Source of the DNA: a virus
IMG/VR virus record: IMGVR_UViG_3300040801_001819
Span: 1-64,000 of that record
Reading direction: 5' to 3' (one strand)
DNA: 64,000 bases
Shown here one piece after another: positions 1-27,153 of the stretch (position 1 is the first letter of the stretch; every line of letters starts with the position of its first letter). Position numbers and translations under genes: made by a program. The notes beneath the pieces were generated by a model. That model made no database searches. It was given only the letters and a program-made list of their open reading frames with translations, and was not told the origin of the DNA.

Positions 1-3000
1 ATAAGATTCTATGTTTCTAGACCCTATTCCTGCATAATTAGGAGTAAGAGTTGGAGTAGGTATTTCTACCCATTTACCATCCATGGCCTTATACCATTTT
101 TTAGATTTAAGATCCCATAAGTGTACAGGTTTATTCATTTTTTGCGCAAGTGTAACAGCAGTATTAGTTCCACCATAAACAGCGGCGTTAAATAAATCTG
201 TATCCATCTCTGCAATAGCAAATACACTATCAGAATTAGCTACTTGATAATAGTTTCTAACTTGTAGATTACCTTTTAAGTCATCTGCATATTTTATACC
301 AGTAAGTCTTTCAACCTCTTTTCTAGCAAGATCCATCTCTTCTTTAGAAAGAACAGTAGCAGAAGATGTTTTTTTAATCCCAGATGCAACTCTTGCATTA
401 TTAGCATCTTTATAGTGTTTATGATTTACAACACCAAATTCTCTACCTATTTGATCCCAAAATGAATCAGCACCATAAGCTCCACCTGAATGATTTGTAA
501 AATTAGAAGGATTTATTTCAGAAACAGCTTTATCTATGTTTACCTCTGTATATTGTAATCCAGTTTCAAGGTCAACATTAGCAATAACAATTTCACCAGA
601 TTCTTGATCAATCATATCGTATCTATCACCTGAATTTTTAACCCAAATATGATTATCAGGCATATTATCTCTGCCTTCAGTCTTTCCATTTGTAAATTCA
701 GAAAATAAAGTATAAAAAGTAAAGAATTCATTAGGCAACTTTCCTTGTGAAGATGCTATATATTTCTTAAAAGAAGCTATATCTTCATCAAATATAATCT
801 TTTTTGAAACTTCTCGAACATTCTCACTTGGAGTATTTTCTTGAACACTCACACCTGTTCTTTCTTCAACAAATCCAGGATCAGATCTAAGTTGTTTCAT
901 TATATCTCTAATCTCACCCTTAATCTTAGTAGGAACATTATTTCCTTCAACAACAGACTTAGTAGGAGCTTCTTTTTCATTATATTCGAAGATACTACCT
1001 TTACTAGATTTGTGTCCAAGCTTATGTGTACGAGTATATACAGGATTTCCATTAACTTCTCCTCTTAATATGAATAAACCATAATTTGGAATAGCACCTT
1101 TATCATATACTTCTTTTTGATTAAGCATTACTTTTGTAAATTTAGGGAATGTTTTATTACCCATAAAATCTACATCAACTGCAACAGAATATTTTTCTTC
1201 GTCACTGATAAATCCAGTTCCAAGACTAAATAAACTTCCGAAACCTTTTATTTTATCAGCTCTAAGCTCAGGAACTAATTTAGAACCCAATGTTTTATTA
1301 TCCCATTGATGTCTTAGCATTTGATCTTTAAAGTCTTCACCTGCAACCATATTGTCAACAGTTCTAAACATCTCATCAATCTCAAATGCAATACCTTGTT
1401 CTGCAAAGAAATTATGTGGGATATGTGAAAAGAATTGATTTAAATTATTATTAAATCCAGATTGTGAGTACGCGTATCTTATTAAATCTAGTCCAAGCTT
1501 TCTTTCGGCCGGATCAGAAGAATTAAGTAGTTGAGACCACGCTCTGTATATTCTATTGTTAAAACTTTTTGTAGCTGTTCTAGAATCTATTCCTAAAAAT
1601 TCGTATCCACCTGAAGTCTCTATTCTAAATTCTTGAATTAAGAAATTATCACTAGTTTCCTTAAGCGCAGAAATTTGTTCTGGTAAAACTTTAAATAAAT
1701 AATCATGATCTGAGTTGTTATCTTTAAAGACAGACAATCCAGACATAGAATAAGATCTAAAAGAATTTTCTAACACTCTTCCTAATTCAGGATCAGTTAA
1801 TAATCCTTTTCCCAAAGCTTCAGATACGCTGTCAAAAGCATGCAATACTTCTTGCTTACCAGCCAAGAATAAATCACTAGCTTGTAATACATCGCTAACC
1901 CATAACACTCCATTATGATAGTAATGACCCATCATGGTAGATGTAGCATGTGCATCAGTAAACCCTTTAGAAGCATATCCTAATATTTTCTTAGCATTAA
2001 GAACAGCATTCACTTTATTTTTAGCAATATGTAAAGGTAGAACTCCACCTCCATTACCTTTGGTATCAGCTTTAGCAGCAGAGACACTGGCGTTGAAAGC
2101 TCGTGCATGATCTTGAAAGAATTCAAATATATCCAGGATCTTGCCTTGTTCAATTTTCTCTTCAGTAGTAAGGGCGCCTTCTTTTTTAATTGCAGCCTCC
2201 ATATTAGATGGGTTTAAAGCAGCAACATCAGCTTCAGTAGCATCACCTTTCTTAACACCATATTGTAATCTAATATACTCCATTGGAGTTACAGTTTTGC
2301 CTGAGTCTCCAAAAGTTAATCTTCTTGCAGTTTTACCATCTGACATATTTATAACATCAACTAAATCTTTAAGAATAGGTTGACCTATAAATCTGTTAAC
2401 CCATGATACAGGAGCTCCTGCTCGTAATAACATAAATGTAATACCTGCTGTATGAACATTGTGGTTGCCACGAGAAATATAAGGATCTTTTGCAATATCA
2501 ACATACGCGTTTAAGAATGCAGATAGTACATCACTAATGCTATTCTTACCATCTGTGTCTGTAAGGTTATCAAACTTTGTATTACCTTTAGAGTCTTTAT
2601 GTCCAATACCTAAGTATCCGTTAAGCGTAATGTTTAAACTTTGGTTACTTACATGGTCCACTAACTGGTTTGCAGTCTGTGCCACACCGAACTTACCAGA
2701 CAAGTATTCAAACTTAGTCTTAATTTGTTGTATAGGGCTCATAAACTGTAAACTTCCTAACTCTTGTGGAGGAAATAAACCAATAATATCATTCTTTAAG
2801 AAACCAGCGTCAATTGATGTCATCATTTGGTCGTAAGTGTGAGGACTTGTAAGAACACTAGTATATAAATCTACTAGCATATTTTGCTTACCTTTTTTAG
2901 AGTCCATGTTACTTGGTACCTTTTGGATTTTTCCATCTCTCACTTCAAGGTGATGCGTCATAACATACATCTTGTCTATATCAAAGTCACTACCAGTCTT

Positions 3001-6000
3001 ACCAGGTACAGCATCGTAAGCAATAATACTATCTCCTAACTCAGGAGGAAGTATACCAACAATCTCTAACGGATCATTAGAAGACATCCCTTGGTTAGGT
3101 ATTCTATACGCAACCATTTGTAGTGCACTAGGATCTAAAATTTCCTTAAGCTTAGCAGCTGACATGTTCCATGGATTTATTCTCTGTGGATCATTCTCAT
3201 CTTTAAATTGTTTGTTATATTTATCAATAGTGCTTCTTATTGCACTATATGGTAACATTGCTTGACCAGGTAAAACTTTTCCAGTCTTTTTATCAATACG
3301 TGGTGGCTTTAATCCTTTTGGATCATAGTTATCAGATACTATTTTGATACCGGATCTAAGAATTTTAGTTGGGCCAGTATTTACACCCAATTCTTTTTGA
3401 GCAAGATTTAATCCTTCTAAAAAAGCTTTATCAATTAACTGATTTGTGTTGTGAGTAAATTCTTTATATTTAACTAATTTTTTAGCAGATTCAGAATTAC
3501 GATTTTGTTTAAAACTTTCTACAACTAGCGTTTTCATCAATCCTAAACTATCTGCATCCTTCATTTCAGCAATTGTTCCTTTTCCTCTTATTTTTTTTCC
3601 ATAACCTCCTATTTTATTATAAGCATCGTAAGTTTCTTTATCAAAATCTCCTGATTTGTTAGATTGATATGCATGCTCAACACTGCCGTATTCTTTACCT
3701 TTATATGTAAATCTTCTTTCTGCTAAATTAGATAAAACTTTTGTAGATTTACTTGATTCAGCTTGACCGTAATAAACATTTATAGTTCCTTCTGGAGCAT
3801 CTTCTTTTACTATTTCTTTTACAGACTCTAATCCAAAAGGAGAAACTTGAATAAAACTACCACCATTGGTTTTAACTTTAATAAGTTCTTTATTAAAAAT
3901 AGACATAAAGATACTTTGTACTCTTCCTGCTAATTGAGGAATAGCATCAAATGGCATCTCTTTTTCTAAGGCTGAAATAATATTTTCATCTCCACCTCTT
4001 GATTTAAATTCGTCAATAAGAGCCTCATAGACTGCCGTCATATTAGTAATCTTATTATCTTCTCCTATTCCGAACTTAGCACCAAGTGCTTCTCTTCCCT
4101 CTCCAACTAGTGATCCAATAGTATCATGAATCATTTGCATGATTTCTCTACCAGTTTTAGGTTCGCCATTAAGTTCATAGTTAGCTAATTTAGAAGATAA
4201 GTCAATACCAGCTAATATGTTCTTTTGGATTTGAGATCCAGTAAGAGTATCATGAATAAGCTTTGTAGGTAGATCTTGTTGTAACTTCCAGCCTGAATTA
4301 ATTAAAGGAGTTGAATTTAATTCAAATTCTGCTAATAACTCACCGTCTTTAGTGTGAATATCTGTTATTCCTTTTGCTCCAACTTTTACGCCGTCTCGAG
4401 TAATAACTTCATGAAGTTCATCTTTTTTATTAACATATGGCTCACCTGTTGCAGGATCTATTGTCATCTTATCGTATAGAGCTTGCATTGGAGTGTTTTT
4501 AACTAAACTAGGAACTAATACAGCCTGTGAATATTTTAAATATACAGGACGTCCGTTATTAATTTCGAAATATACACCTTTCAATGATTGAGCAGCAAGC
4601 TTAAGTTCTTTAGGCCCTAGCTCTTTGCCATCTATCATTTTCTTGAATACTTTCTCATGCTGAGCACCCCATTGGCCTAATCTCTCTTTAAGAAACTTCC
4701 ATCTATAAGGAGTTATCCATGCTTGAGCATCAGTGGTATTTATTCCTCCATTCACACCAGGTATTTTGTCATAAACTAAAGCTATACTTGCATTAGCTTG
4801 ACTTAGTCCATAATATTTAGAAGGGTAATTTACATCAGTGCCTGGAATTACAGATCCTTTTTTTATAATAGGATCTCCTTTTTTATTTCTTATTTTTAAA
4901 GAATTAATTATTTCATCTAAAAACTTAGAGGCAACCTCAACACCATTAACTGTTGCTTGATTAAAATACTTGTGATCATTCTCACTAAGTCTTAATTGTA
5001 ATCCATCAGTATATGTTGCAGGAATACGCTTAATTAAATCACTTTGATTTTTGTAGTAAGCAGGATCACCAGAAAATAACTTAGTATATTCAATAGTAGA
5101 AATAAGTCCATTAACCACATAATCACCAACCATTGTATGTACTGGTGAACTTTGAGATTCATATGAAGCCATTAAAGATTTATCAATAGTAAGGGCCTTT
5201 AATCCACCCTTTTCTTTTGGATCAACTTCTATAATTTTATTTTTTCTTAACTCCTGAAGAGTTTCTTTCATTCTATCCTTGATAGCTTGTACAACAAATG
5301 GTCTTAAAGCCTCTTTCTGAGTATTAGATAATCCAGAAATTGTAGATTTTTTAGGACGGTTATTATCATATAAGATAGCTCTAACTTCCTTAGAAGCTTC
5401 AGCAGGTGAGAATTCTGGAAACAATTGAGACTTAAGCGCATTCATACTCTTAGTATGATAGTGCTCTATCTTTTTTGAATCAGGAAGATTATCTATTTGA
5501 TCAGCTGCTTCAGCCATCCTGTTATATTCATCTTCAAAGTAGCCTATAAATATATCAGATGTAGCATCATCAACCTCTGTTCCTTTACCATTAGTATATA
5601 CTATACCTGTTTCAAACATTTCGAAACCTGCAAGATCCATTTTACGGGATTTATCAGCCGGAACAATAGTAGGAAATAATGACTTTTGGGCAGAAGCTTT
5701 CTTACCAAGAATTTTTACCATACTATCATTAATAGCATCAGCAATTGTTATATTAGTATTATCAACACCGTCATTTTTATTTTTGGATTTCATAGAGCTC
5801 GACAAGCCTATTTGAACATCCTGAATTCTTTCTAATGATTTAGCTTCGCGTTCACTATCATTAACAATGTCAGCAGCTAGTAAGTATTTTAACCATCTAG
5901 AATTCTTGTTATAAGTTAAGCTAGCTAAAGCTTGTATATCCATAGTATCATCTACTCCAGCTTGCTGTTTCCAGGAATTAAGCTTGTTATGTAAATAACT

Positions 6001-7677
6001 TAATGAAGAATAGGTCCAATATGTCTTACCTTCATTACCAACAATTGTATTCTCAGATAATTGAATAGCACTCAATCCTCTTGCAGTAGCTAATCTACCT
6101 AATACTAATTGATCATCAAATGGATTTTTAAATTCACCAGCTACAACAAATGGAGCTTTATCATCTTTTATGATAGCCATGGTTCTTTCCATACCTTCAT
6201 ATAAAGCTTTTACTTCACCATATCTTTTTTCCGGATCACTAACCTGAAGAATGAAGTTACGCATATCAAGGTTATTAACGTTGATACCAAGCACATTCAT
6301 TGCTCCCATTAAAATAGGAAGATTCTCACTAATACTTTTAATTTTAGACGCTAATGTTCCTCTTGTTCCTACTTGACCAATAAATTTTTTCTTTGACTCA
6401 GTAATCATGTCAGATATTTGTTCAATATCGACAGCTTTATTCATCTTACCCTTGCTGGTTAAGAATTTCTTTCTAAAATTACGGCCCCATTCAGCTTTAA
6501 GCTTACTAGATCTCGAGTTTGTAGAAGAAGCATTGATTACTTTTATATTACGACCGTTAACTTCAGTTACATAATAATCAAGTTGAGCTTTAGAGAAAGC
6601 TTGAAAAAATTCTGTAATTTTATTTCTTTCACTAATCTTCTCTGAAGTATTTAATTCTTTTAGTCTGTCTACTAATCCTTCTGTCCATGGCTTAACTAGT
6701 TTTAAGCCCTCAAGCTTCTCAACCATTAAGTCAAATACATCCTGAACATCTCCTCCTAAGTTAAAGTTAACTAAGTCAGATAGCATTGGCTCCAATGTAG
6801 TCCATACGTCATCAAATTCAACAAACTGTGGTTTACCTAAAAACCTACCAGGAACAGTAGAAATAACCATTTCATTTTTACCGTTCTCATTTACATATGG
6901 AGTTCCGTCAGGATTTTTCCTAAGCTCTCTTTTAGTATCTAATACAGTGGATAATAGTAACTTTACATTTACAGACGCAGTGTCTTTAGAATTCTTTGTA
7001 AAGCTTTCAGCGAAATTCATTCCAGTGGATTTGTCTTCTTCAGCCATTTCCACTTCTGGATTTCCATTCTCATCAGTTAAGTCAACAATTTGATCCTTTC
7101 TAGCACCTGCTTTAATACGCTTGCTTGATGTAAGACCCATGTCTTCAATTTGATTCCTTACCTCAATAACAAAATCATCTTTATATTTTTCAATAAGATC
7201 TGCACGCATTTGTGCATCAGGATCTCCTACATTTTCAGCTCTATAAGCATCAATGCTAGATTGAATAGACTCAGATATCTTTAGACCTTTTATATTCTCA
7301 ATGTTATTAAAATCAAATCCTTCCTTAGTTGAGAACAACTCATATCTAAGTTGATTAGTGATTTCAAATACGTCGTCTGGATCTATTTCTGGAAACTTAA
7401 TCTTGTTTAAGAAGTCTTTCTTGCCATTCTTAAGTTTATAGTAGAATTGGTTACCAGATTTAAATAATCTAGGATAACCATTATCATCTTGCCTTAATGC
7501 ACCTTGTTTGTCAGTCCATTTAGCATCTTTATTATTTTCCCAATCGCCGAATACTTGTTTGAATGAATCAGAAGCAATTCTTCGTGCTTCTGCATTAGCT
7601 AGTTCTTGAGTTCCCAAAATGGTAACTAGCTTTTCCTCAAACTTCATGGCGCCTATACAATTCGAATTCTTTCCCAT
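1..7677 (-). CDS. giant virion-packaged RNA polymerase (crAss-like vRNAP); N-terminus complete, C-terminus runs off the window; at least 2559 aa
   Basis: Absent from the ORF track because there is no stop inside the window. My manual minus-strand translation from ATG 7677 (or in-frame ATG 7647) is stop-free to nt 1 (7677 = 3 x 2559). The track lists no minus-strand ORF fragments in 1-7700. It has the RNAP beta-prime-like metal motif GSDFDIDKM (nt 2974-2988), preceded by AYRIPNQGMSS. It lies downstream of the ejection-protein block, as in crAss-like phages. Confidence 0.85.
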   Translation of the reverse strand, partial: MGKNSNCIGAMKFEEKLVTILGTQELANAEARRIASDSFKQVFGDWENNKDAKWTDKQGALRQDDNGYPRLFKSGNQFYYKLKNGKKDFLNKIKFPEIDPDDVFEITNQLRYELFSTKEGFDFNNIENIKGLKISESIQSSIDAYRAENVGDPDAQMRADLIEKYKDDFVIEVRNQIEDMGLTSSKRIKAGARKDQIVDLTDENGNPEVEMAEEDKSTGMNFAESFTKNSKDTASVNVKLLLSTVLDTKRELRKNPDGTPYVNENGKNEMVISTVPGRFLGKPQFVEFDDVWTTLEPMLSDLVNFNLGGDVQDVFDLMVEKLEGLKLVKPWTEGLVDRLKELNTSEKISERNKITEFFQAFSKAQLDYYVTEVNGRNIKVINASSTNSRSSKLKAEWGRNFRKKFLTSKGKMNKAVDIEQISDMITESKKKFIGQVGTRGTLASKIKSISENLPILMGAMNVLGINVNNLDMRNFILQVSDPEKRYGEVKALYEGMERTMAIIKDDKAPFVVAGEFKNPFDDQLVLGRLATARGLSAIQLSENTIVGNEGKTYWTYSSLSYLHNKLNSWKQQAGVDDTMDIQALASLTYNKNSRWLKYLLAADIVNDSEREAKSLERIQDVQIGLSSSMKSKNKNDGVDNTNITIADAINDSMVKILGKKASAQKSLFPTIVPADKSRKMDLAGFEMFETGIVYTNGKGTEVDDATSDIFIGYFEDEYNRMAEAADQIDNLPDSKKIEHYHTKSMNALKSQLFPEFSPAEASKEVRAILYDNNRPKKSTISGLSNTQKEALRPFVVQAIKDRMKETLQELRKNKIIEVDPKEKGGLKALTIDKSLMASYESQSSPVHTMVGDYVVNGLISTIEYTKLFSGDPAYYKNQSDLIKRIPATYTDGLQLRLSENDHKYFNQATVNGVEVASKFLDEIINSLKIRNKKGDPIIKKGSVIPGTDVNYPSKYYGLSQANASIALVYDKIPGVNGGINTTDAQAWITPYRWKFLKERLGQWGAQHEKVFKKMIDGKELGPKELKLAAQSLKGVYFEINNGRPVYLKYSQAVLVPSLVKNTPMQALYDKMTIDPATGEPYVNKKDELHEVITRDGVKVGAKGITDIHTKDGELLAEFELNSTPLINSGWKLQQDLPTKLIHDTLTGSQIQKNILAGIDLSSKLANYELNGEPKTGREIMQMIHDTIGSLVGEGREALGAKFGIGEDNKITNMTAVYEALIDEFKSRGGDENIISALEKEMPFDAIPQLAGRVQSIFMSIFNKELIKVKTNGGSFIQVSPFGLESVKEIVKEDAPEGTINVYYGQAESSKSTKVLSNLAERRFTYKGKEYGSVEHAYQSNKSGDFDKETYDAYNKIGGYGKKIRGKGTIAEMKDADSLGLMKTLVVESFKQNRNSESAKKLVKYKEFTHNTNQLIDKAFLEGLNLAQKELGVNTGPTKILRSGIKIVSDNYDPKGLKPPRIDKKTGKVLPGQAMLPYSAIRSTIDKYNKQFKDENDPQRINPWNMSAAKLKEILDPSALQMVAYRIPNQGMSSNDPLEIVGILPPELGDSIIAYDAVPGKTGSDFDIDKMYVMTHHLEVRDGKIQKVPSNMDSKKGKQNMLVDLYTSVLTSPHTYDQMMTSIDAGFLKNDIIGLFPPQELGSLQFMSPIQQIKTKFEYLSGKFGVAQTANQLVDHVSNQSLNITLNGYLGIGHKDSKGNTKFDNLTDTDGKNSISDVLSAFLNAYVDIAKDPYISRGNHNVHTAGITFMLLRAGAPVSWVNRFIGQPILKDLVDVINMSDGKTARRLTFGDSGKTVTPMEYIRLQYGVKKGDATEADVAALNPSNMEAAIKKEGALTTEEKIEQGKILDIFEFFQDHARAFNASVSAAKADTKGNGGGVLPLHIAKNKVNAVLNAKKILGYASKGFTDAHATSTMMGHYYHNGVLWVSDVLQASDLFLAGKQEVLHAFDSVSEALGKGLLTDPELGRVLENSFRSYSMSGLSVFKDNNSDHDYLFKVLPEQISALKETSDNFLIQEFRIETSGGYEFLGIDSRTATKSFNNRIYRAWSQLLNSSDPAERKLGLDLIRYAYSQSGFNNNLNQFFSHIPHNFFAEQGIAFEIDEMFRTVDNMVAGEDFKDQMLRHQWDNKTLGSKLVPELRADKIKGFGSLFSLGTGFISDEEKYSVAVDVDFMGNKTFPKFTKVMLNQKEVYDKGAIPNYGLFILRGEVNGNPVYTRTHKLGHKSSKGSIFEYNEKEAPTKSVVEGNNVPTKIKGEIRDIMKQLRSDPGFVEERTGVSVQENTPSENVREVSKKIIFDEDIASFKKYIASSQGKLPNEFFTFYTLFSEFTNGKTEGRDNMPDNHIWVKNSGDRYDMIDQESGEIVIANVDLETGLQYTEVNIDKAVSEINPSNFTNHSGGAYGADSFWDQIGREFGVVNHKHYKDANNARVASGIKKTSSATVLSKEEMDLARKEVERLTGIKYADDLKGNLQVRNYYQVANSDSVFAIAEMDTDLFNAAVYGGTNTAVTLAQKMNKPVHLWDLKSKKWYKAMDGKWVEIPTPTLTPNYAGIGSRNIESY

Positions 7678-7702
7678 TTGCTTTATAGCGTTTTAAAATT
7701 TA

Positions 7703-10700
7703 TTATATTATACAATCCCAGTCTCCCTGTTCTTCAGTTTTAATTACATTAGGATCTATTTCTTTTGTTTTTTGTTTCTTATCAATCTTTTCAGCATCTT
7801 TTGCTTCTTCAGAAGATTCTACTTCTACATTCTTATTAGCTTTTAGTTCTCTTTGTGCCATTTTGTTTCTAGCTTTAACTTCTTCTGAATCATTTAAATC
7901 TACAAGAATTTCATTTATTTCAGAAGTCTTATCTGTAAATATAGCGTTTTCTCTCATAGAAAGCAAATTATTTTCAGCAATTTTTTTAGCAATCTTATTT
8001 AATTGCATTTTAGATATATCACCTTTATCAACAAACTTTTTCCAAATACCATCAGAAATAGTTTCATTTAAAGAATCTTCAACAGTAATATTACCTAAAG
8101 CAGCTAATTCTGCATCGTATTTAGCATTGATTTTATCTTTTATAAATTGATCTACTTCTCCTAAATTTAAACCTTTTGGATTATAAATTTCCCCTTTTGT
8201 ATAATTATAAGGAGAATACTTTTTATCTTTAAACTCAGCTTTATTATGTATCTCTATTCTATTAAACTCTTGTAATTCTTTTTGTCTTCTTCTTTCTATA
8301 TCAGCTTTTTGTGCATCTATTGATTTACTTGATGGATCTATTGTTGTTTTTTGAATAGGAACTTCCTTAATAACAGTAGATGCTTTTTGAGCAGGTTGAG
8401 CTAATCTTTCAGCATCATATCTTTCTTTTATTAGCTTACGAACCATGTCAGCATTTTTACCGTATACTGGAATTCTTTTTCTATTTTTATCAAAGAATAC
8501 GCCGGCAAAGCCTTTCTCTCTTTCATCAACAACACCAGCATTATCAGAAGCTGCTTGTCTAGAATCAATATCTTTGTTAGCCTTAGTTGCTTCCTTAGGG
8601 CTCACTTCAGTAACTTCAGGAGTATCTTCAGGCACAGCAAATCCTATATCAAACTTAAATGGAGGTAATCCATTATCACGGCCAAGAGTTTTATTCTCAT
8701 TAAATAATGGCTTCTCAGTACCAACAACAGCGTCAGTAGACATTACGCCATTAGTCATCATTTCTCTATATTTAGGACCTATTACAGCATCATTCCATTG
8801 TTTAAGATTAAGTTGACGTCTCTTGAAATCTTGTATAAACCCAATAAGAGCATCTCTATTATCACCTACATTCTTAGGTGTAACAATAGCTTTAACATCT
8901 GTACCATAATGGATCCATTCACCTGTTAGGTGTAAATGAGTTTCTTTACCAGCTGTTTCAGCCGTCATGTGTACAAACAATTTAGCCACATCCATTGTTT
9001 TAGCATCTTTACCTAATACAGCAAATTCAGAAGGATGATCTTCTTTAAATCTTTTAAATAACTCAGGATGTTCACTTAATCTAGCCTCTTTACCAAGCTT
9101 CTTGGTAATAACAGCTATAAGTAAGTCTGCAACAAATGTAGCTTCTACTGTTGTTGGGCGTCTTAGGTTAAGCTTTAAAGGAAATGGATCTCCATTAGCC
9201 TTAGGAACATTTAAAAATACACCACCTTTGTAAGGTACTGGATTTCCTTTGTCATCTTGTGTTCTTAATACATCTATTTGTAATCCTTCAAAGTCAGGAT
9301 GATCTGTTTTATCACTAGCCTTAACTAAAGTGCCATTCTCATTAGTAACCATTAAGTCTACTTTACCCATATTACCATCAATAAATGGGAAATCCATTAT
9401 ATTGTTTTCAGGCACAGTGTTATCCTCAGTTTCTTCAACATGTAAGTTTCCTCCAAATTGATAAGTAACTTGAGTTTTAGTGTTTCCTTTAAACATCTGT
9501 CTAATAATAGCCTCTCTTTTTGGCAATTCATTAGTTTTAAAGAATGTATTTGATGGAGAGAATGCAGGTATATATGACCAAATCTCTTCAGTAAGCTGAA
9601 TCTTTATAGGAAGATGATTAAATAAAATATCTTTTTCCTCAGATGTAAGCTTATTTTTAGGATTAGCCTTAGCTCTGTTGTAAATATTAATTGCCTGTTG
9701 GGCTAATTGCAAATATTTTCCACTAGGATCACCTATCACAAAATCTAAAAGGACTGGTTTGCCATCCTTCATTCCAGTTTTGTCCTTACCATTAAACACC
9801 CAGTCTTTCCAACCAGGACCATTAAGATTAGCATACATAGGAACCTTTATGTTCTTATACGCTTTAGTGTTAATAGCTCTATCTTGTGACTTCTCTTTGC
9901 TTTTAGTAATCTTAGAGACAGTAGTTTGCTCCTCAGCGAACTCATCTTCTACGTTATCATTAACCTTAGCGTTGTTAGCATTGGTTATAGTCTTAGTATC
10001 TTTCTTAGCTTCATTAACGGCAGCTAACTTCTCAGCTTCTCTAGCCTCATCGTTCTTATATTCTTGAGCAAGAGCAGCCTCATTAGCTAATTCCTCTATA
10101 TTCTCATTAACAGTAGCAAGTTCAGCAGCTTTTTCATCTTTAGTTAAGAATGGAGCATTTTCAATTTCCTTCTTAATAGCTTCACCTTGCTCTTCATTCT
10201 CTATTTTAGAGTTGATCTTTTCTTTTAAAGCTTCTTTTTTAAGACCATTTCTATAACTTTCACTGCGAATAGCGTCATTCTCTAATTGATTAAGCATTAT
10301 CTCTGCGTTATTACGCTCCTTAACCATATTAGCTTGAACAAGCTCATTAGTGATATCTTCTGTAAAACCTTGAGCTATCCTAGAATCTTCCCTTTTTTTG
10401 TCAGCATCTCTTGGATCATCTTTGTTTTCAGCATCATATTGTTTAGTTAGTTTAGATATTCTAGCCTCATTTTCTTTTATGATTTTTTCAATATGTGGTT
10501 TTCTTAACTCACTTACTTTACCTGATTTAAGTTGATCTTTGAATGCTTGATTCATTTCAGCTAAAGCTCTTAACTTAATTACTCCTTCAACTTTATTAAG
10601 TTGAGTTGTAGACATAGCATTAATATTCGGAATAGAATAAGTAGTAGATTGGATTTTTTCATCCATCTTCTTTGAGTTCTCAACAAATCTTTTAGTTCTG

Positions 10701-12412
10701 TAATTATTCTGGGCCATTTTAGCCGCAATATTACCTTCGTATTTATTAGAGAACTTCAAATAATCTAATCTCATCTCTTCAGACTTTTTGATTACTTCAG
10801 GAATACTCTTTTTAGCTAATTCTAGATTAAATTCACCACCACCTTGTTCTTGTAAAGCTTTAGCTTCTTCTTTAGTCATATTAGCAATACCTTGAAGAGC
10901 TTCAATATGCTGATCAAATTTACCACGATTCAATGCATCAGTAGTCATCATCAACATCATTTCATCTAATACCATCTCTCTGGCTTCAATGTTATCGTTG
11001 TTGTCAGCATCAGATAGCCTTTGTTGCATAGACATAAAGTTCTTAGCACGATCATTAAGTGTAGCTCTATAAGTCTCTTCGTAATTGCTTTCGAATTCTC
11101 TTCTTTTCTTTCCTTTTCCGAGCTCATTTAAGCCCTTACCTGCCATTTGAAATAAATTACCACCTAATCCACCAAAGAATGCAGATGTCATCATCTCGTC
11201 AGAGCCAATGGCGTCAGACATGATCTCATTATACTTATCTCTTGTGATTAATCCAGCATTTAGGTCAGCAAGTGCCTTACCTTGTTCAGCAATATAATAT
11301 TGATAAGATTCTTCAGCACCTTCAGATAAGAATGTACCAATTCCACCACCAACTTTTTGTTGCCATGGTTTTAATTTTAATTGTTTACCTTTTTGAGAAG
11401 CTTTAGATAAGGCATTCTCCATTCTTCCAGTATGAGGATTGAAGATTTTACCTAATGCTAAGTATTGTGGTATATCTTGAAGTAACATAGCCCAACCTTT
11501 ATTGTAGTTAGAAGCAGCGGCCTCAGAGGCTAACTTAGTTGCTTCTTCTTCAGTAAATGGTAAGCCTGTTTCTTTATTTGTTCTTTTTAAGTAATCAGCT
11601 TTTGCACTTTCGAATGTGCCACTAGCTTCCATAGAATTTTCTATATGTCTAGATACGATAGCTTGAGAAATACCTTCTGTCATCCATGTAGCTTGTTTAC
11701 CCATGTTTCCAGCAACATCAAGTATACGCGAAAACTTACCACCAAGCTTAGAAGCTCCTCTACCTAAGAAGCCTAATGCTTTAGTAGCAGCCATAGAAGG
11801 AATAAGCATGCTTAGTGTAGAAGCTACACTAACACCATTACTAAACCACCATCCTGGATCTCCCGGATCAAATTTACCAGGATTCTCAGTATAAATAGCC
11901 ATTTTATCTTGACTCCATGTTCTAAGACCTTTACCAGCTTCAGTCATGAAGTTACCCCAGTCTTTTTCGTCACCAGTCATATAATCCAGTGCACTACCAA
12001 GATCTAAGATATAACCTAAACCTTCAGTAGTACCAGCTACAATTTGACCAACAACAGCTTGACCAAGCATATTACCTGCTTGCTCCCAACCGGATTGATT
12101 CATAGCGCGTTGTTTATTTAAAGCGTCAACACCACCAGTAGGCATAAATATGCTAGATCCAAGATAGTCTGTATAATCTTCGATGTCTAATCCTTTATAC
12201 ATTTTATCTTGAACAACCTGTGGTCCTCCACCACCAAACTTAGCTTTACCTTTATTTGGATCTTCAGCAGGAACATCTTCATCACTACCACCAAACTTAG
12301 CCTTAGGTTTTGACTTTTCGTCAGTCTTAGGCTCAGTATTCATTAGTGTTTCATCTGTGGATGGATTCTCTACAATGCTTAAGTCTAAAGCTTCATTATT
12401 CTCCTGTACCAT
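7703..12412 (-). CDS. large virion ejection/cargo-like protein (1569 aa)
   Basis: Track ORF located between the tail genes and vRNAP. It has a duplicated KAKFGG motif at the N-terminus and a long charged coiled-coil-like centre. Function is inferred from size and position only. Confidence 0.5.
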   Translation of the reverse strand: MVQENNEALDLSIVENPSTDETLMNTEPKTDEKSKPKAKFGGSDEDVPAEDPNKGKAKFGGGGPQVVQDKMYKGLDIEDYTDYLGSSIFMPTGGVDALNKQRAMNQSGWEQAGNMLGQAVVGQIVAGTTEGLGYILDLGSALDYMTGDEKDWGNFMTEAGKGLRTWSQDKMAIYTENPGKFDPGDPGWWFSNGVSVASTLSMLIPSMAATKALGFLGRGASKLGGKFSRILDVAGNMGKQATWMTEGISQAIVSRHIENSMEASGTFESAKADYLKRTNKETGLPFTEEEATKLASEAAASNYNKGWAMLLQDIPQYLALGKIFNPHTGRMENALSKASQKGKQLKLKPWQQKVGGGIGTFLSEGAEESYQYYIAEQGKALADLNAGLITRDKYNEIMSDAIGSDEMMTSAFFGGLGGNLFQMAGKGLNELGKGKKRREFESNYEETYRATLNDRAKNFMSMQQRLSDADNNDNIEAREMVLDEMMLMMTTDALNRGKFDQHIEALQGIANMTKEEAKALQEQGGGEFNLELAKKSIPEVIKKSEEMRLDYLKFSNKYEGNIAAKMAQNNYRTKRFVENSKKMDEKIQSTTYSIPNINAMSTTQLNKVEGVIKLRALAEMNQAFKDQLKSGKVSELRKPHIEKIIKENEARISKLTKQYDAENKDDPRDADKKREDSRIAQGFTEDITNELVQANMVKERNNAEIMLNQLENDAIRSESYRNGLKKEALKEKINSKIENEEQGEAIKKEIENAPFLTKDEKAAELATVNENIEELANEAALAQEYKNDEAREAEKLAAVNEAKKDTKTITNANNAKVNDNVEDEFAEEQTTVSKITKSKEKSQDRAINTKAYKNIKVPMYANLNGPGWKDWVFNGKDKTGMKDGKPVLLDFVIGDPSGKYLQLAQQAINIYNRAKANPKNKLTSEEKDILFNHLPIKIQLTEEIWSYIPAFSPSNTFFKTNELPKREAIIRQMFKGNTKTQVTYQFGGNLHVEETEDNTVPENNIMDFPFIDGNMGKVDLMVTNENGTLVKASDKTDHPDFEGLQIDVLRTQDDKGNPVPYKGGVFLNVPKANGDPFPLKLNLRRPTTVEATFVADLLIAVITKKLGKEARLSEHPELFKRFKEDHPSEFAVLGKDAKTMDVAKLFVHMTAETAGKETHLHLTGEWIHYGTDVKAIVTPKNVGDNRDALIGFIQDFKRRQLNLKQWNDAVIGPKYREMMTNGVMSTDAVVGTEKPLFNENKTLGRDNGLPPFKFDIGFAVPEDTPEVTEVSPKEATKANKDIDSRQAASDNAGVVDEREKGFAGVFFDKNRKRIPVYGKNADMVRKLIKERYDAERLAQPAQKASTVIKEVPIQKTTIDPSSKSIDAQKADIERRRQKELQEFNRIEIHNKAEFKDKKYSPYNYTKGEIYNPKGLNLGEVDQFIKDKINAKYDAELAALGNITVEDSLNETISDGIWKKFVDKGDISKMQLNKIAKKIAENNLLSMRENAIFTDKTSEINEILVDLNDSEEVKARNKMAQRELKANKNVEVESSEEAKDAEKIDKKQKTKEIDPNVIKTEEQGDWDCII

Positions 12413-14660
12413 ATTTATCTATTTGTGACAATAATTCATTTGCAAGATATGAAGCCATATCTGATTCACCGTGTATTTCTCTTGATGTAAATCCACCAAC
12501 ATGTATTTTCCAAATTTCTTGATCACCTATTGTTTCTTTTTTCCAAACTATTGGAACTTCATTTCCATCTAAAACAACAGTGCTATTTTTTCCAGTAAAT
12601 TTACCTTCAGTAGCCCCTGTTCTTAAACCTCCATTTTGTTTAATCATTGGTAACATTTCATAATTGGCCAGCATTCTTTTACCTTTATCTTGTAAACCAG
12701 GATCAGTAGATTTCATTAATTCAATAGCAACTTCTCTTTGCTCTTTTCTACCAGCTTCACCTCTTGTAACACTTTTAACTTCCATTACAGATCCATTTTT
12801 ATCTTTAATAACTAAATGCTCAATTGGATAACCCATAGCATCTAGTCCATCTGTAACTCTTATTTCAAATTTATATTTTGCTTCAGGTGAACTAGGATCA
12901 GTTGGGTAGTTTTCCTGTATATATTGATTTATAGACATTCCTGTATAAGCTTCTGAATAACCAGCTCCTAAGAAGTTTTCTGAAAGGTTTTGATTAATAG
13001 CTCCAATTTTACTAGAATATTTACCAGAGTTTAATGCTCCAAATTCAGTATATGACTCAGAATAAGGATTCTGTTCAAGATATTTTTTAGATTTATCTTT
13101 AAGGGCTCTTGATCCATCTTTCATTTTATCTACTATATCATCATCGTAAGCTAAGTCTTCACTTCCTACCCAGTTAAATATACTTCTATTTGCTATAGAA
13201 TTTTTATTTACCTTCTCACCAGTCATTTCTAAGTACTTTGAAAGTAAGAAATTTTCCATTTCATCACTTCCTGTTCCAATCTCACTTAAAGTACCATTTT
13301 TTCCAACAACTTCAACTCCGCCAGGTAATTTTCTAATAGCTTCAGTTAAAGAAGTAATAGCTTCATCTTGATTTTTAGCTTGATCATATCCAGGAACACC
13401 TTTTCTAACCTTATCATATAGTTTTTTACCTTCTTGTTCTTGAGGAGTAAGTTCCTTGAATGTTTCTTTCTCAATAGAGTCAATTCTATTCTTAAGATTA
13501 AAGTATTTAACCTTAGAATCATTAAGACTCTTTTGAGCTAAAGCATACGCATCAGGATTAGCCTTTATTCTCTCTGGAGTCCAGTTAGCAGCTAAAGCAC
13601 CAGTTTGTCTATCAATTTCTTTTAAAGCTAAATCTTTATTTTCTCTAATCCGATCAATACTATCAGGAGTAATAGTCTTCCATACACCATCAGCAGCTCT
13701 AACTAATTCATTAGCTTCTTTTTCTTCAAGGCCAGCGTCAAATAAAGCTTTAGCAACAGTGTCAGTTTGATAATGATACTTATATGTTTGTTCTTTTGAT
13801 TGTCCACCTAATGCGGCACCATATAATTGTCTACCAAATTCATTACCAGGAGTAAATACGTCAACCTTTGAACCATCATCTCTATATTTAACAGACCATG
13901 TTCCTATATTTTTGGGATCACCTGCATTGGGGTCAAAAAATTGTTGTTGTTTTAAAGACGCTTGTAAATCTGGATCATTAGATGCCATAATGGTTAAGGA
14001 AGACATAATCTTATTGAAATCTTTTTCTGTAACCAAACCAGAAGAATATGCTTTATTGAATTGATCTAGATTGCCAGCATATTTCATCATTTCTTGATTA
14101 GTATCAGAAGCAATAAGTTTTAGATTTTTATTAATCCAATCATTAGTATCTACTTTTGAAGACATTCCTGAACCTTGAAACTGTTTAAAATTACCTAATT
14201 CATCAAATGAACTACCAAAGTTTTTTACCTGTGTTGTAGCCCATAATTTAGCTTGTTGTGGTGACCAACCTGCTTGTTGTTCTTTCTTAGTAGCAAGATC
14301 ATTAATATATGCTTGTGCAGCTTTATAATTAGCTTCAGCTTGACCAACAACTCCAGAAGCACCAAAGGATTTCTTTTGAGATGATCTTAATTGTCTAAGT
14401 TTATTAGATAAATTTCTATCTACACCTCTTTCCATTAAGTCTTTTGAAATCTGCTCTGATTCCTTTCTAATTCTTTCTAATTCTGCATCAACGACAGGAG
14501 CATCACTCTCAAGTCTTTTAGCTTCAAGCGCTTGTAGTTCATCAGTTGCAGCCAATGAAGCATCCTGACGAGTTTGTTTAGCTAATGGAATAGCCATTAT
14601 CTCATCTAAGGAAAGACCCTTAAATCCTGCTGTTGTAGTTTGTGAAAATCTATTTGCCAT
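12396..14660 (-). CDS. virion/ejection-block protein (754 aa), function unknown
   Basis: Track ORF; overlaps the downstream gene by 17 nt, suggesting translational coupling. No motif recognised. Confidence 0.5.
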   Translation of the reverse strand: MANRFSQTTTAGFKGLSLDEIMAIPLAKQTRQDASLAATDELQALEAKRLESDAPVVDAELERIRKESEQISKDLMERGVDRNLSNKLRQLRSSQKKSFGASGVVGQAEANYKAAQAYINDLATKKEQQAGWSPQQAKLWATTQVKNFGSSFDELGNFKQFQGSGMSSKVDTNDWINKNLKLIASDTNQEMMKYAGNLDQFNKAYSSGLVTEKDFNKIMSSLTIMASNDPDLQASLKQQQFFDPNAGDPKNIGTWSVKYRDDGSKVDVFTPGNEFGRQLYGAALGGQSKEQTYKYHYQTDTVAKALFDAGLEEKEANELVRAADGVWKTITPDSIDRIRENKDLALKEIDRQTGALAANWTPERIKANPDAYALAQKSLNDSKVKYFNLKNRIDSIEKETFKELTPQEQEGKKLYDKVRKGVPGYDQAKNQDEAITSLTEAIRKLPGGVEVVGKNGTLSEIGTGSDEMENFLLSKYLEMTGEKVNKNSIANRSIFNWVGSEDLAYDDDIVDKMKDGSRALKDKSKKYLEQNPYSESYTEFGALNSGKYSSKIGAINQNLSENFLGAGYSEAYTGMSINQYIQENYPTDPSSPEAKYKFEIRVTDGLDAMGYPIEHLVIKDKNGSVMEVKSVTRGEAGRKEQREVAIELMKSTDPGLQDKGKRMLANYEMLPMIKQNGGLRTGATEGKFTGKNSTVVLDGNEVPIVWKKETIGDQEIWKIHVGGFTSREIHGESDMASYLANELLSQIDKYGTGE

Positions 14661-14661
14661 A

Positions 14662-14853
14662 TTATTTGTCGTTAAGCTTTGCTAACAGCGCATCCTTATC
14701 ATTCATAAATATAGTGATAAAATCCTTAACATCCTCACGTTTAATGATAATTCTTTCATTATTGTAAGTAATTATGAATCTGTTTAACCTATGATCAATA
14801 TAAATATCATCATTGTCAACTACATTTAGTAATAATAAATACGCTCTAGTCAT
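14662..14853 (-). CDS. small hypothetical protein (63 aa)
   Basis: Track ORF that fills the gap between co-oriented neighbours with 1-4 nt junctions. Confidence 0.45.
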   Translation of the reverse strand: MTRAYLLLLNVVDNDDIYIDHRLNRFIITYNNERIIIKREDVKDFITIFMNDKDALLAKLNDK

Positions 14854-16352
14854 CTTGTTTTTTTCTTTTTTTTCTTGCCGTTAATATACTTGCCAGTAGC
14901 GTCAAAGTCCATTCCCATTAGCTCTGGGTATTTTTTGAATAACTGTTCTTTTCCTATTTCTCCAAGGTTGGATCCTAATTGAGAAATCAATTGACTCTTC
15001 TGAATATCATAAGCGCCTTGATTTTGTTCATTAGCTAACTTCTCTGCATTTGATTGTTGTAAATTAGTTTGATCAACACCTAAGTTAAACTGTTGTCCAG
15101 TTCTATTATCTTGTCTATTAGCCTCGCCAGCTGATTGCATAGCGCTAGATAAAGCTTTTGTTCCCTGAAGACTTAATCCCAATAAGTTAGCTCGAGCAGC
15201 TGCTCCAGAACCACCAGATGATCCTAATATAGCATCTCTATTACTACTGATTCCTTCTTGAACACCTTGAACCAAACTTCTTTCATCTACTTGTTGTGAT
15301 TGATACTTGTTCCCAAGTCTACCTCTTGATACTTCATCAGGCTTCTTAAGAGTAGCCAATTGATAAGCATCAGTAACAGCAGGCGCATATCTAAGTAATG
15401 TTGATGGATCATATTTAGATTGAAGATCTTCTCCTTCTCCTTCTCCTTCTTCGTCTTCTTCGTCTTCTTCTTCTTCTTCTTCTTCTTCTTGTTGTTGTTG
15501 TTGTTGTTGTTGTTGTTTTAACCAATCACCTATCTGATTGTTTTCTTGTATTTGTTCAATTATTGCTTGTTCATCTAAACTAGCATCATCAAGACCCATA
15601 GCCTTGAATTTAGCATCATTAGAATTAGCTTGCGCATTAACACCTGCGCTATATGGATTTACACCAGGAGTATGATAATCTGCGCTAGTTCCTGTCATTT
15701 GAGGAATTTGAAGAGTTTGTATCATTTTGATTAATTCATTAGGATCTATATTATTCATAAATCCTCCACCGAAATATTTATTATTATATTGTCTAGCTTG
15801 AGTAGCAGTATTATTTACCTCCATATCTAGTGCCTTTTTTTCAGCAGCACCATTCCCTATGAAACTTCCTGCTATATCAAGAATTGGAGAAGCTATTGCG
15901 CCTACACCAGGTATCATACTAGCAGCTCCACTCGCGGCACTCATAATTCCTTTAGCAGCATTACCTTCTTTAAAATGACTAATAGCTTCTGGAGCTTTAG
16001 CTAGAGCTCCTAGTCCAGGTATTGCAGACGATGCTGCTCCACCTAATAAACCTGCTGCTCCTCCTGCACCACCTAGAATACTCATTATTCCTCCTAAGAA
16101 GTGATCATTAGTAGGCCCCATTGCAGGACCTTGTGGTTGTGGTTGCTCAGTTGGCTGAGATTGCTTTTTAATGTACTCTTGTGCTTGCTGTAATCTTCCT
16201 TGCAAATCCTGAAGAGTATCAACAGATTCTTTATCTGTTCTGCCCTCAAATTTCTTAGCAATGAGTTTACTAGCTTCAGCAAAAGTTTTACCTTTTGTAT
16301 ACGAAGGTAAATTGAACATATCCATTATGCTATTGCTTTCTTTCTTTTTCAT
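14850..16352 (-). CDS. Gly/Ala-rich ejection-block protein with polyQ-polyE tract and C-terminal K6
   Basis: Track ORF. The N-terminal third is a hydrophobic G/A-rich segment (GGAGGAAGLLGGAASSAIPGLGAL...). It contains Q8 followed by an E/D run. Confidence 0.55.
   Translation of the reverse strand: MKKKESNSIMDMFNLPSYTKGKTFAEASKLIAKKFEGRTDKESVDTLQDLQGRLQQAQEYIKKQSQPTEQPQPQGPAMGPTNDHFLGGIMSILGGAGGAAGLLGGAASSAIPGLGALAKAPEAISHFKEGNAAKGIMSAASGAASMIPGVGAIASPILDIAGSFIGNGAAEKKALDMEVNNTATQARQYNNKYFGGGFMNNIDPNELIKMIQTLQIPQMTGTSADYHTPGVNPYSAGVNAQANSNDAKFKAMGLDDASLDEQAIIEQIQENNQIGDWLKQQQQQQQQQEEEEEEEEDEEDEEGEGEGEDLQSKYDPSTLLRYAPAVTDAYQLATLKKPDEVSRGRLGNKYQSQQVDERSLVQGVQEGISSNRDAILGSSGGSGAAARANLLGLSLQGTKALSSAMQSAGEANRQDNRTGQQFNLGVDQTNLQQSNAEKLANEQNQGAYDIQKSQLISQLGSNLGEIGKEQLFKKYPELMGMDFDATGKYINGKKKKKKTR
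15428..15517. repeat. in-frame trinucleotide microsatellite: CTT/CTC run followed by (GTT)9
   Basis: Read directly: cttcttcttcttcttcttcttctt then gtt x9. It encodes the polyE/polyQ tract of the 500-aa protein on the minus strand. Confidence 0.9.
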
Positions 16353-18262: not shown

Positions 18263-18978
18263 TATTTCCAGGGTTTAATTTTCTGGTGTTTAAAGTTCAA
18301 ACCAATAGTTTTTCCTGTTGATTGAGCTATTGTTCTCCATCCTTTCCATATTGTAATGCCGAATATTTTGTATTCAACAATCTTACACTCAGAGTATCTG
18401 AAATACAACAAATCAGAACCATGTACCTTATACCATATTAATCCTTCTCCAATTATAGAAGTCTCTTTTGATATTTCGTCACCTTGCATTACTTGCCAGA
18501 TGTCTTCTGAAGGATCTTGAGGAATATACTTTAATCCAGCCTTTATTACCCAAGCTCCATTTTGTCTTAACTTTGTACCATCATACTTATGAAGGTTGTC
18601 TATTTCAATTTCTAATGGAATGATGTTATTATTTCCAACATGATTAGGAAAAGAAGTATCTAATCCTCCACCAAGTCTTTCTTTAAAATTCCAACAAGCA
18701 TTTCTTTTGTGCCATTTGTAAGCAACCCAGATATCTTCTTTAGTCTTCTTGTATCTCAATAAGAAAGAATAATAGTCCATTGAATATCCATGTGATGTAT
18801 TATCATCAAGTCTTGAATCATCCATCCATCCCCAGAACATACTCCTATCACCTCTTTTCCTGCTCCACCACGCTGGGAAGAACATAAACCAAGATGTTAA
18901 AAATCCTAATGCTCCTAGCCAAAAGAAACCTTTAAACCATCTCTTTTTTGCTTCCTTTTTTTCTTTATCTGTTACCAT
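18262..18978 (-). CDS. N-terminally membrane-anchored Trp-rich protein, unknown function
   Basis: Track ORF with a hydrophobic segment (FFWLGALGFLTSWFMFFPAWW) and its own promoter-like boxes upstream. Confidence 0.5.
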   Translation of the reverse strand: MVTDKEKKEAKKRWFKGFFWLGALGFLTSWFMFFPAWWSRKRGDRSMFWGWMDDSRLDDNTSHGYSMDYYSFLLRYKKTKEDIWVAYKWHKRNACWNFKERLGGGLDTSFPNHVGNNNIIPLEIEIDNLHKYDGTKLRQNGAWVIKAGLKYIPQDPSEDIWQVMQGDEISKETSIIGEGLIWYKVHGSDLLYFRYSECKIVEYKIFGITIWKGWRTIAQSTGKTIGLNFKHQKIKPWK

Positions 18979-18987
18979 TATACTGTA

Positions 18988-19016: not shown

Positions 19017-19035
19017 TATTGACTATCATACAAAG

Positions 19036-24477: not shown

Positions 24478-24483
24478 GTCTTG

Positions 24484-27054: not shown

Positions 27055-27078
27055 AAAATATATATATTGATTTTTGTA

Positions 27079-27107: not shown

Positions 27108-27153
27108 GAAATAGTATCATAAACTATTGATACATAGAATTAGTTATAAACAA

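Follow-up and report, generated by a model that had tools for sequence, protein, structure and literature searches.

The stretch analysed here (hereafter the window) comprises the 64,000 nucleotides at positions 1 to 64,000 of IMG/VR virus record IMGVR_UViG_3300040801_001819. At its left end lies a giant minus-strand open reading frame (ORF) for a virion RNA polymerase (vRNAP) of crAss-like phage type, and the last visible codons of this ORF form a SLOG-type module that is the subject of this work. The frame is stop-free across window 1-7692 and exits via the left end. Its first ATG lies at 7677, with an alternative at 7647, and the stop codon of the preceding gene is at 7703. The features on which the analysis rests are the following.

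1-7677, minus strand: crAss-like virion RNA polymerase polyprotein, partial ORF of at least 2,559 codons from the first ATG (7677), stop-free, matched by phmmer to PDB 6VR4.
1-525, minus strand: SLOG-type (PHROG 768, "DprA-like") circularly permuted Rossmannoid module, ORF residues 2390-2564, the last 175 codons, an in-frame cassette.
466-495, minus strand: motif NHSGGAYGAD, a strand then a Gly-rich loop; alignment columns G39, G40, G43 and D45 invariant.
241-258, minus strand: motif RNYYQV, family-specific, at the end of a helical insert; R115 invariant, N116 and Q119 at least 90% conserved.
211-234, minus strand: strand SDSVFAIA, which follows RNYYQV.
112-177, minus strand: YGGTNTA loop-helix (157-177) then NKPVHLWD strand (112-135); G143 and G144 invariant, T145, A148 and K157 at least 90% conserved.
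16-36, minus strand: YAGIGSR strand and Gly-Ser-Arg loop, the first element in canonical SLOG/DprA proteins and here C-terminal; G193 and R195 invariant.
2974-2988, minus strand: DFDID metal-binding motif of a two-barrel RNA polymerase, ORF residues 1569-1573, aligned with GSDFDIDKMYVM of phi14:2 gp66.
3376-3799, minus strand: NADAR-like module, a second in-frame cassette, ORF residues ~1299-1439, an alignment gap against the close relative L001.

The carrier ORF is a clear homologue of phi14:2 gp66 (PDB 6VR4; phmmer E 2.4e-215 in four stretches). The homology extends to about ORF residue 2165, and the DFDID motif is common to both proteins. Judged by homology across both barrels and the DFDxD-type motif, the window ORF belongs to the crAss-like gp66-type virion RNA polymerases, in agreement with an earlier reading made from the sequence alone (the sequence-only reading). 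Unlike the window ORF, the 2,194-residue gp66 chain carries neither a SLOG-type nor a NADAR-like module. The phi14:2 protein is packaged in the capsid and enters the cell together with the phage DNA (bioRxiv 10.1101/2020.03.07.982082). The other genes of the window form a phage structural module (terminase, portal, major head protein, tail fibres) with the vRNAP gene at its end and, by inference from phi14:2 and from this gene position, the window vRNAP would be a virion component that is ejected into the host. Phages of the crAss-like group rank among the most abundant known, and no phage protein is active in the cell before their injected polymerase.

The boundary of the SLOG-type module was set at window 525/526 by comparison with L001, a closely related IMG/VR locus described below. 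The sequence-only reading had placed the domain at 1-510, which proved to be its core, and all of the peptides it quoted are present. It had also held that the domain is incomplete and the ORF continues, as the open left end of the frame bears out. Judged by long-variant homologues, which end in a helix AIRxVYxxT, the window end removes approximately the last 45-50 residues of the module. The window copy, whose final residues are ...GIGSRNIESY, thus represents ~78% of a domain of ~225 residues. The family motifs are, in order, NHSGGAxGAD, an HxHY hairpin, RNxxQV, GGTxxA...KPV, a conserved Trp, a C-terminal P.LT.NFAGIGSR and the helix AIRxVYxxT, and in the window copy all are intact except the last helix.

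Conservation of these elements was high. A search with the module segment against a database of 5.8e9 proteins returned 50 homologues with E-values down to 1.6e-57, and a profile built from 28 homologues retrieved 2,587 cluster representatives at E<=1e-3, 905 of them at E<=1e-30, from 1.84 billion proteins. Across 28-51 homologues, positions of the three Gly-rich loops AGIGSR, SGGAxGxD and GGTxxA were invariant or at least 90% conserved. The GGAxGAD motif, whose conservation in homologues the sequence-only reading had singled out as a point to check, was invariant or nearly so, and the GGT..A..KP element likewise. As these alignments and searches indicate, the motifs of the module are beyond chance and define a large, well-conserved domain family. 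AlphaFold2 models of the window fragment (mean predicted local distance difference test score, pLDDT, 90.6) and of a complete stand-alone homologue (pLDDT 95) both showed alternating beta/alpha folds. These strands and helices conform to the three-layer alpha/beta Rossmannoid arrangement of SLOG domains, and the structure prediction that the sequence-only reading had asked for yielded a discrete Rossmannoid module with Gly-rich loops.

We then considered to which family the module should be assigned, taking the definitions of SLOG families from Pfam names and from later papers of the Burroughs et al. 2015 group. The sole significant match in the profile libraries was to PHROG 768 (E 7.4e-13), in which module residues 7-158 aligned with profile positions 27-179 of 191, covering 153/191 positions. 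Pfam and NCBIfam scans of the module gave no model above its curated threshold, and NCBIfam gave no relevant match on native sequences. The sub-threshold matches that recurred all belonged to the SLOG/TIR/deoxyribohydrolase group, namely cpYpsA, DprA and nucleoside 2-deoxyribosyltransferase (Nuc_deoxyrib_tr). For the native consensus, cpYpsA gave the best native-order Pfam signal (E 0.0027), and Nuc_deoxyrib_tr followed at E 0.02. The best cpYpsA (PF12694) matches lay at E 0.0027-0.005 and 17-18 bits, on profile positions ~51-124 of 145; 3 of 28 members gave a match, and scores ranged from 12 to 18 bits against a gathering score of 26.2 bits. DprA was matched by native sequences only with the GSR stretch (profile positions 31-77, E 0.009-0.04), which in the native consensus means the last 30 residues.

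The canonical order of elements in DprA and YpsA is the GSR strand-helix, the SGGAxGxD loop and then the GGT loop. In our family set of 195 collected proteins, AGIGSR and its helix were C-terminal in 176, at 140-181 residues past SGGAxGxD. The C-terminal strand-helix was moved to the front of the sequences, which were then rescanned. With this permutation, matches to Pfam DprA rose from 2/10 to 5/10 sequences, with alignments now covering GSR, the helix and SGGAxGxD, and matches to NCBIfam TIGR00732 (dprA) rose from 0/28 to 10/36. In DprA-type SLOG domains the counterpart of the NHSGGAYGAD motif is the SGxAxGxD loop that follows strand 2; once permuted, the motif falls on DprA profile positions ~70-88. 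The YGGTNTA...NKPVHLWD element corresponds to SG(S/T)xxTA...V.V of DprA and matches Pfam cpYpsA positions 53-113. On the basis of sequence and secondary structure, the domain is circularly permuted as in cpYpsA, with the GSR strand-helix relocated to the C-terminus. The cpYpsA family is itself a circularly permuted SLOG family, formerly called "MoCo carrier". Its first strand-helix is C-terminal, apparently by the same permutation, and a Medusavirus "molybdenum cofactor carrier" was among the weak structural neighbours of our module. The cpYpsA match nevertheless leaves out the N-terminal NHSGGAxGAD half of the module.

Several results weigh against a close tie to DprA or to any solved SLOG structure. 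The permuted consensus aligned with PF02481 over the whole domain (residues 3-159 on profile positions 46-191 of 212, E 1e-4) at 22 bits, below the 29.6-bit gathering score, and the module lies outside DprA/Smf as delimited by curated cut-off and native element order. The module shares with DprA/Smf (PF02481, TIGR00732) the three Gly-rich motifs GSR, SGxAxGxD and SG(S/T)/GGT..A..V.V, but it is permuted, has an extra helical insert and beta-hairpins, and is without SAM-like or winged-helix domains. Hidden Markov model (HMM) profiles of the family, from native and permuted alignments, gave no meaningful match to PDB chain sequences. Foldseek comparison of both AlphaFold2 models with the PDB gave generic Rossmann-like matches only (best E 0.04-0.19, TM ~0.3), among which there was no DprA, YpsA, LOG or ThsA structure. 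Comparison of the native and permuted family alignments by hhalign with E. coli Smf, or with a 20-sequence enterobacterial DprA alignment, gave nothing, a weak negative given the very low diversity of that template (effective sequence number, Neff, 2.3).

These negative results are what would be expected if the module were an unrelated Rossmann-like fold with convergent Gly-rich loops and the PHROG label were an over-annotation: no curated SLOG model was reached at its gathering score, and family HMMs, hhalign and Foldseek against the PDB were all non-significant. We regard this as improbable. Only families of the SLOG/TIR/deoxyribohydrolase group recur among the sub-threshold profile matches, and moving a single strand-helix restores the canonical motif order and specifically raises DprA scores. 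In BFVD, which collects predicted structures of viral proteins, the nearest non-family neighbours were repeatedly DprA-like, MoCo-carrier and YspA/cpYpsA-related proteins; these matches were weak (E 7e-3 to 0.6) but enriched for annotated SLOG proteins.

The module is therefore best described as a distinct, circularly permuted family of the SLOG superfamily, an assignment that we consider highly probable. In our reading its motifs most resemble those of DprA and its topology that of cpYpsA, and it is a member of neither DUF2493 nor LOG. The SLOG assignment of the sequence-only reading accordingly stands at the superfamily level, on the PHROG 768 match, the sub-threshold cpYpsA, DprA and Nuc_deoxyrib_tr matches and the BFVD neighbours, and no curated model was reached. 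The families that it had named fared less well. PF10686 (DUF2493/YAcAr) was matched by neither the window copy, the 28 alignment members, further native homologues, their permuted versions nor the consensus. PF03641 (LOG) was matched by neither members nor consensus, and the catalytic Glu of the LOG motif PGGxGTxxE is absent: at this position the window reads YGGTNTAVTLAQ (GGTNTAVTLAQ) and the family GGTGWAVQMA, with no Glu. PF02481 (DprA) stayed below its gathering score and gave a whole-domain alignment only after the artificial permutation, and no significant match to a solved structure was found with Foldseek or with HMM profiles against the PDB. The YAcAr/DUF2493 and LOG families do share with the module a common superfamily logic of GGAxGAD-type and GGT-type loops in a Rossmannoid fold; the permutation gives the module a different order of elements. 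Beyond the sequence-only reading lie the third motif FAGIGSR, the circular permutation, the status of the module as an accessory cassette and its nucleic-acid enzyme neighbours.

The domain family itself is part of a known superfamily and already has a catalogue entry, PHROG 768. RefSeq phage genes matched by tblastn carry the name of this entry, "DprA-like DNA recombination-mediator protein", in phages Cr30, RaK2, K64-1 and Atu_ph07 and in crAss phages cr109_1, cr113_1 and cr130_1. The name is an annotation label and, in the window, the domain sits within a vRNAP rather than in a gene of its own. Three aspects appear to be undescribed so far: the circular permutation with respect to DprA, the presence or absence of cassettes in otherwise near-identical polymerases, and the frequency of the module, among nucleic-acid repair modules, inside the injected polymerases of crAss-like and at least one N4-like phage.

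The cassette status of the module emerged from comparison with L001, which encodes a 3,521-residue ORF with 93% protein identity and 94-97% DNA identity to the window ORF. L001 is without two blocks of the window ORF, the NADAR-like residues ~1299-1439 and everything from residue 2390. Both proteins read ...LQYTEVNIDKA and then split into VSEINPSNFTNHSGG... in the window and DKAQEERILPSDDY... in L001, with DNA and protein homology ending after ...TEVNIDKA at window 526/527. Because a 93%-identical relative is without them, both modules are in-frame accessory cassettes, and the SLOG cassette is dispensable for transcription by the polymerase since a 93%-identical polymerase does without it. The L001 ORF runs on for 1,313 residues past the module start point (L001 10967-14905), a C-terminal region that had no Pfam match and that includes a HEFAH (HExxH) motif. 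In some crAss-like phages gp65, gp66 and gp67 are fused and presumably cleaved, and one of the partners is a Zincin-like protease (bioRxiv 10.1101/2020.03.07.982082). The HEFAH motif and this published fusion are in line with a Zincin-like L001 tail. Going by the length of the L001 ORF, the window ORF likely extends well past the window. The SLOG-type module thus sits directly behind the polymerase body, at its junction with the next polyprotein unit. In scans for the rest of the ORF, exact 35-mers found no match in IMG/VR or JGI metagenome contigs, and protein-guided scans found relatives only, with module identity of at most 62%, such that the downstream junction was not recovered. A megablast search of window 1-8000 against GenBank phages also gave no match.

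The second cassette was recognized by the same comparison. Its junctions read ...EDAPEG|TINVYY... and ...GVNTG|PTKILRSG... in the window, where L001 has ...DDSGEG|PTKVLRSG.... The module matches phrog_1017, which carries a function-less label, and Pfam PF08719 did not match the window copy. It is, however, 31% identical (pairwise E 1e-8), SVEhAaQ motif included, to the region of family protein P0178 that matches Pfam NADAR at 3e-15, which supports the NADAR module of the sequence-only reading as a NADAR-like one. GC content at third codon positions was 0.131 for the SLOG codons and 0.106 for the NADAR-like codons against an ORF median of 0.20, both inside the 0.103-0.314 range of same-size windows, and base composition is not decisive as a sign of foreign origin. 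An intein or intron origin of the cassettes was rejected, as they are in frame with no stops and no splicing motifs, and their homologues are ordinary stand-alone proteins. Two smaller features were observed in the same comparison. A short imperfect direct repeat (ACTATAAA / ACTAAAA) at the NADAR-like junctions may be due to chance. A third difference from L001, at ~4743-4881 (minus strand; ORF residues ~938-983), comprises ~46 codons against ~6 in L001 between flanks of 94-97% DNA identity, and reflects either a short insertion in the polymerase body or the exchange of a variable loop there.

The window polymerase is one of many that carry the module. Among the 195 family proteins, 92 were at least 1,500 residues long and ~48 were stand-alone proteins of at most 260 residues. 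An iterative search with the DFDID region identified 76 of the 92 giants as crAss-type vRNAPs and one as N4-type. The crAss vRNAP catalytic region was present in 78 of the 195 family proteins, with the module C-terminal of it in 58 and N-terminal in 20, placing the SLOG-type module among the most frequent passengers of crAss vRNAPs. Likewise, in 50 of the best 80 IMG/VR loci the module lay within an ORF of at least 1,400 residues. In many other loci of these 80 the only disruptions were TAG codons at positions where homologues have Gln, a sign in these alignments of the TAG-to-Gln recoding of gut crAss-like phages. Examples are L032 (5400-6700) and other loci from sample 3300045988 (L033-L076), with GK*HV for GKQHV and AV*MA for AVQMA; in the recoded L032-type loci a NADAR start (VVNIYYGTNENAQLSNFATRPF) directly follows the SLOG-type module. 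A 2022 survey describes viral SLOG domains as "typically standalone" (PMC9503650), whereas most of the best-scoring members of this family are embedded in giants.

The N4-type carrier is a 3,819-residue, N4-like single-subunit vRNAP of Klebsiella phage Pylas (NC_049444.1), a polymerase type unrelated to that of crAss-like phages. The domain, at 9001-9495 of CDS 6070-17529, occupies approximately residues 977-1142, in the N-terminal third, an arrangement suggesting that here the module became joined to an ejected polymerase independently. In Alteromonas phage PT15-A5 the domain lies beneath a gene annotated "RNA polymerase". Stand-alone domain genes occur in jumbo and T4-like phages, and short members in phages without such polymerases. 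Cellular genomes are rarely positive, with 24 loci in a strict pattern scan, several of them in Flavobacterium. In the Flavobacterium sp. TMP13 chromosome, a stand-alone copy (L112, 4043-4615) is ~1 kb from an HsdM-like type I restriction-modification methyltransferase ORF, a call made by eye. In crAssphage cr130_1 (NC_055901.1, CDS 13777-31182), a 5,801-residue protein bears the RefSeq name "DprA-like DNA recombination-mediator protein" for a domain of ~190 residues. This protein is probably a virion polymerase polyprotein, and the RefSeq practice of naming whole vRNAP giants after a small domain is misleading.

We next examined the company that the module keeps. Within 450 residues of it, in the 195 family proteins, were SF1 RecD/Pif1-type helicases (24 proteins), NADAR (15), AlkB-like PF13532 domains (13) and DUF7831 (12). 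In 12 of the proteins NADAR directly adjoins the module, before it in some and after it in others. The AlkB-like 2-oxoglutarate-Fe(II) oxygenase is fused near the module, on either side, in P0015, P0088, P0094 and 12 more family members, and DUF7831 is another recurrent direct neighbour. Stand-alone copies show a related pattern. One of them (P0009 at L097, 3855-6654), which shares 50% identity with the module in the window, is placed exactly between the genes for T4-type RNA ligase 1 (Rnl1) and polynucleotide kinase-phosphatase (PNKP), the classic tRNA-repair pair. Others follow a single-stranded DNA-binding protein (SSB) gene, lie beside SF1 helicases or follow gp46/47 recombination nuclease genes. 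Stand-alone copies were also found with a ribonucleotide reductase nearby and, in three cases, in uninformative neighbourhoods. As a whole the genomic context leans toward nucleic acid. Given that nucleic-acid enzymes (SF1 helicase, AlkB-like, NADAR, Rnl1/PNKP, SSB) keep recurring beside the module, a free ligand of cyclic ADP-ribose (cADPR) type is only one of two live options for it.

We tentatively favour a function in which the module acts on nucleic acid in the manner of DprA, the "DNA-protecting protein A", holding or protecting single-stranded or damaged phage nucleic acid, an interpretation drawn from motifs and gene context. Ejected with the polymerase, the module would be in the host cell from the start of infection, before phage gene expression. 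Its three Gly-rich loops would shape a pocket for a nucleotide moiety, most likely one that is part of a nucleic acid, either single-stranded or damaged. In this way the module would bind or shield the genome entering the cell, or the RNA made from it, much as DprA does. It might also bring the neighbouring adduct-removing and unwinding activities (NADAR, AlkB-like dioxygenase, SF1 helicase) to that nucleic acid, as a response to host systems that modify or cleave it. Published work offers two precedents: phage NADARs strip ADP-ribose from phage DNA and thereby defeat DarTG1, in a study whose authors suspected an additional localising factor (PMC11825919), and DprA/Smf copies in jumbo phages have been read by Iyer et al. 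as binders of single-stranded DNA (PMC7824862).

A number of observations speak against such a nucleic-acid role. The module is only mildly basic, with a family median isoelectric point of 8.7 and net charge of +2, and a charge of +1 for the window copy. Stand-alone copies lie two genes from an NAD synthetase in Atu_ph07, next to a thymidylate synthase in RaK2 and, in another case, within a nucleotide-sugar cluster, beside a kinase-like gene of AAA_28 type. Adjacency of domains in giant polyproteins may mark only a shared permissive insertion zone. Viral YpsA-like SLOG domains have been predicted to process or sense soluble ADP-ribose derivatives (PMC9503650), and nucleic-acid binding by the module is itself a prediction from context.

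The principal rival is that the module soaks up or hydrolyses a soluble immune signal derived from a nucleotide, such as the cADPR isomers or ADP-ribose derivatives of TIR/Thoeris-type systems, and would, together with NADAR, blunt NAD-based defence at the start of infection. SLOG domains do include the cADPR-isomer sensor ThsA of Thoeris and the LOG N-glycosidases, and the native-order similarity and the topology of the module are cpYpsA-like. Iyer et al. predicted in 2022 that viral YpsA-like SLOG domains degrade or sense cADPR-type signals, citing fusions to Macro and NADAR domains (PMC9503650). The 12 proteins with directly adjoining NADAR, in both orders, and the TAG-recoded gut crAss loci with the same arrangement fit this view, as do the copy two genes from NAD synthetase and delivery by the virion, which would suit a quencher. 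ThsA uses a SLOG domain in phage-host conflict, where it binds a nucleotide-derived ligand, as the window module would; but ThsA belongs to the host and couples sensing to an effector, the window module is phage-borne, and no sequence or structure match between the two was found here. More generally, neither models nor structures of the LOG, YpsA, YAcAr or ThsA types were matched, and the module is without the LOG catalytic Glu. Characterised NADARs act on ADP-ribosylated nucleic-acid bases rather than on soluble signals (PMC11543638, PMC11125620, PMC11825919), and the helicase, AlkB-like, SSB and RNA-repair neighbours would be unexpected for a small-molecule sponge. In the literature searched, no experimental test of a phage SLOG domain or of its anti-defence role was found. 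On balance we consider signal quenching less likely than the nucleic-acid role, though plausible.

The module might instead be a nucleotide-pool enzyme, an N-glycosidase or deoxyribosyltransferase-like protein related to LOG/PpnN or to nucleoside 2-deoxyribosyltransferase/DNPH1, that reshapes host nucleotide pools or clears modified nucleotides. The sub-threshold Nuc_deoxyrib_tr match (E 0.02) and the presence of nucleoside 2'-deoxyribosyltransferase structures among the weak Foldseek matches point in this direction, and very strong conservation extends to polar residues (H, D, H, R-N, Q, T, K, R). The stand-alone copies near thymidylate synthase, ribonucleotide reductase and the AAA_28 kinase-like gene of the nucleotide-sugar cluster would also be accommodated. 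The matches are weak, however, no conserved acidic nucleophile comparable to that of the deoxyribosyltransferases or LOG was identified besides the GAD aspartate, which DprA also has, and an enzyme acting on pools would gain little from fusion to an ejected polymerase present at one or few copies. We hold this explanation to be improbable. Least likely of all is that the module has no ligand-directed function and serves as a structural, packaging or ejection adaptor or as a polyprotein spacer: its place at the junction of the polymerase body and the C-terminal part (with HExxH in L001), the gp65-gp66-gp67 fusions, presumably cleaved, of related phages and the position of the Pylas module in the N-terminal part of an N4-like vRNAP would fit such a role, but ~48 of the 195 members are stand-alone proteins of at most 260 residues in phages without such polymerases, conservation lies in the ligand-loop motifs and not in surface patches, the module occurs at many positions (20 N-terminal against 58 C-terminal of the catalytic region), and a 93%-identical polymerase does without it.

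A broader proposal, possible but distinctly speculative, is that vRNAPs of two unrelated kinds serve as delivery chassis for shuffled in-frame counter-defence cassettes, with the permuted SLOG domain as a new class of injected anti-defence effector. The cassette set would comprise permuted SLOG, NADAR, AlkB-like, SF1 helicase and DUF7831 modules, gained and lost between near-identical phages, and the SLOG module would, before transcription, either recognise ADP-ribosylated or otherwise modified phage nucleic acid or quench a nucleotide signal. The window ORF, with RNA polymerase, NADAR-like and SLOG-type modules in one chain of more than 2,559 residues, combines several unrelated domains in one giant polypeptide in the way of the polyvalent proteins of Iyer et al. 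2017 (PMC5512222). Like these, it is giant, multi-domain and presumably virion-delivered, joins enzymatic and DNA-directed modules, and would act early in infection; that study names neither SLOG nor NADAR among the modules of polyvalent proteins, whereas the window ORF has both types.

The RefSeq label "DprA-like" and the comparative-genomics prediction that viral SLOG domains process ADP-ribose signals lead to different expectations for the same module. Choosing between these readings bears on whether phages inject nucleic-acid-protecting or signal-quenching activities with their genomes, and would annotate thousands of metagenomic proteins. The window phage and its 93%-identical relative provide a natural with/without pair for the function of the module.

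Two further observations concern the remainder of the window. Between the vRNAP gene and the structural genes, window 7703-18262 (minus strand) holds four successive ORFs of 1,569, 754, 500 and 636 residues. None of the four had a PHROG match and the first two also had no Pfam match; they probably represent cargo proteins of the gp65/gp67 type found in crAss-like phages. A GroEL-type chaperonin (phrog_5725, E 1.3e-146) is encoded upstream of the terminase gene, at window 50585-52147 (minus strand).

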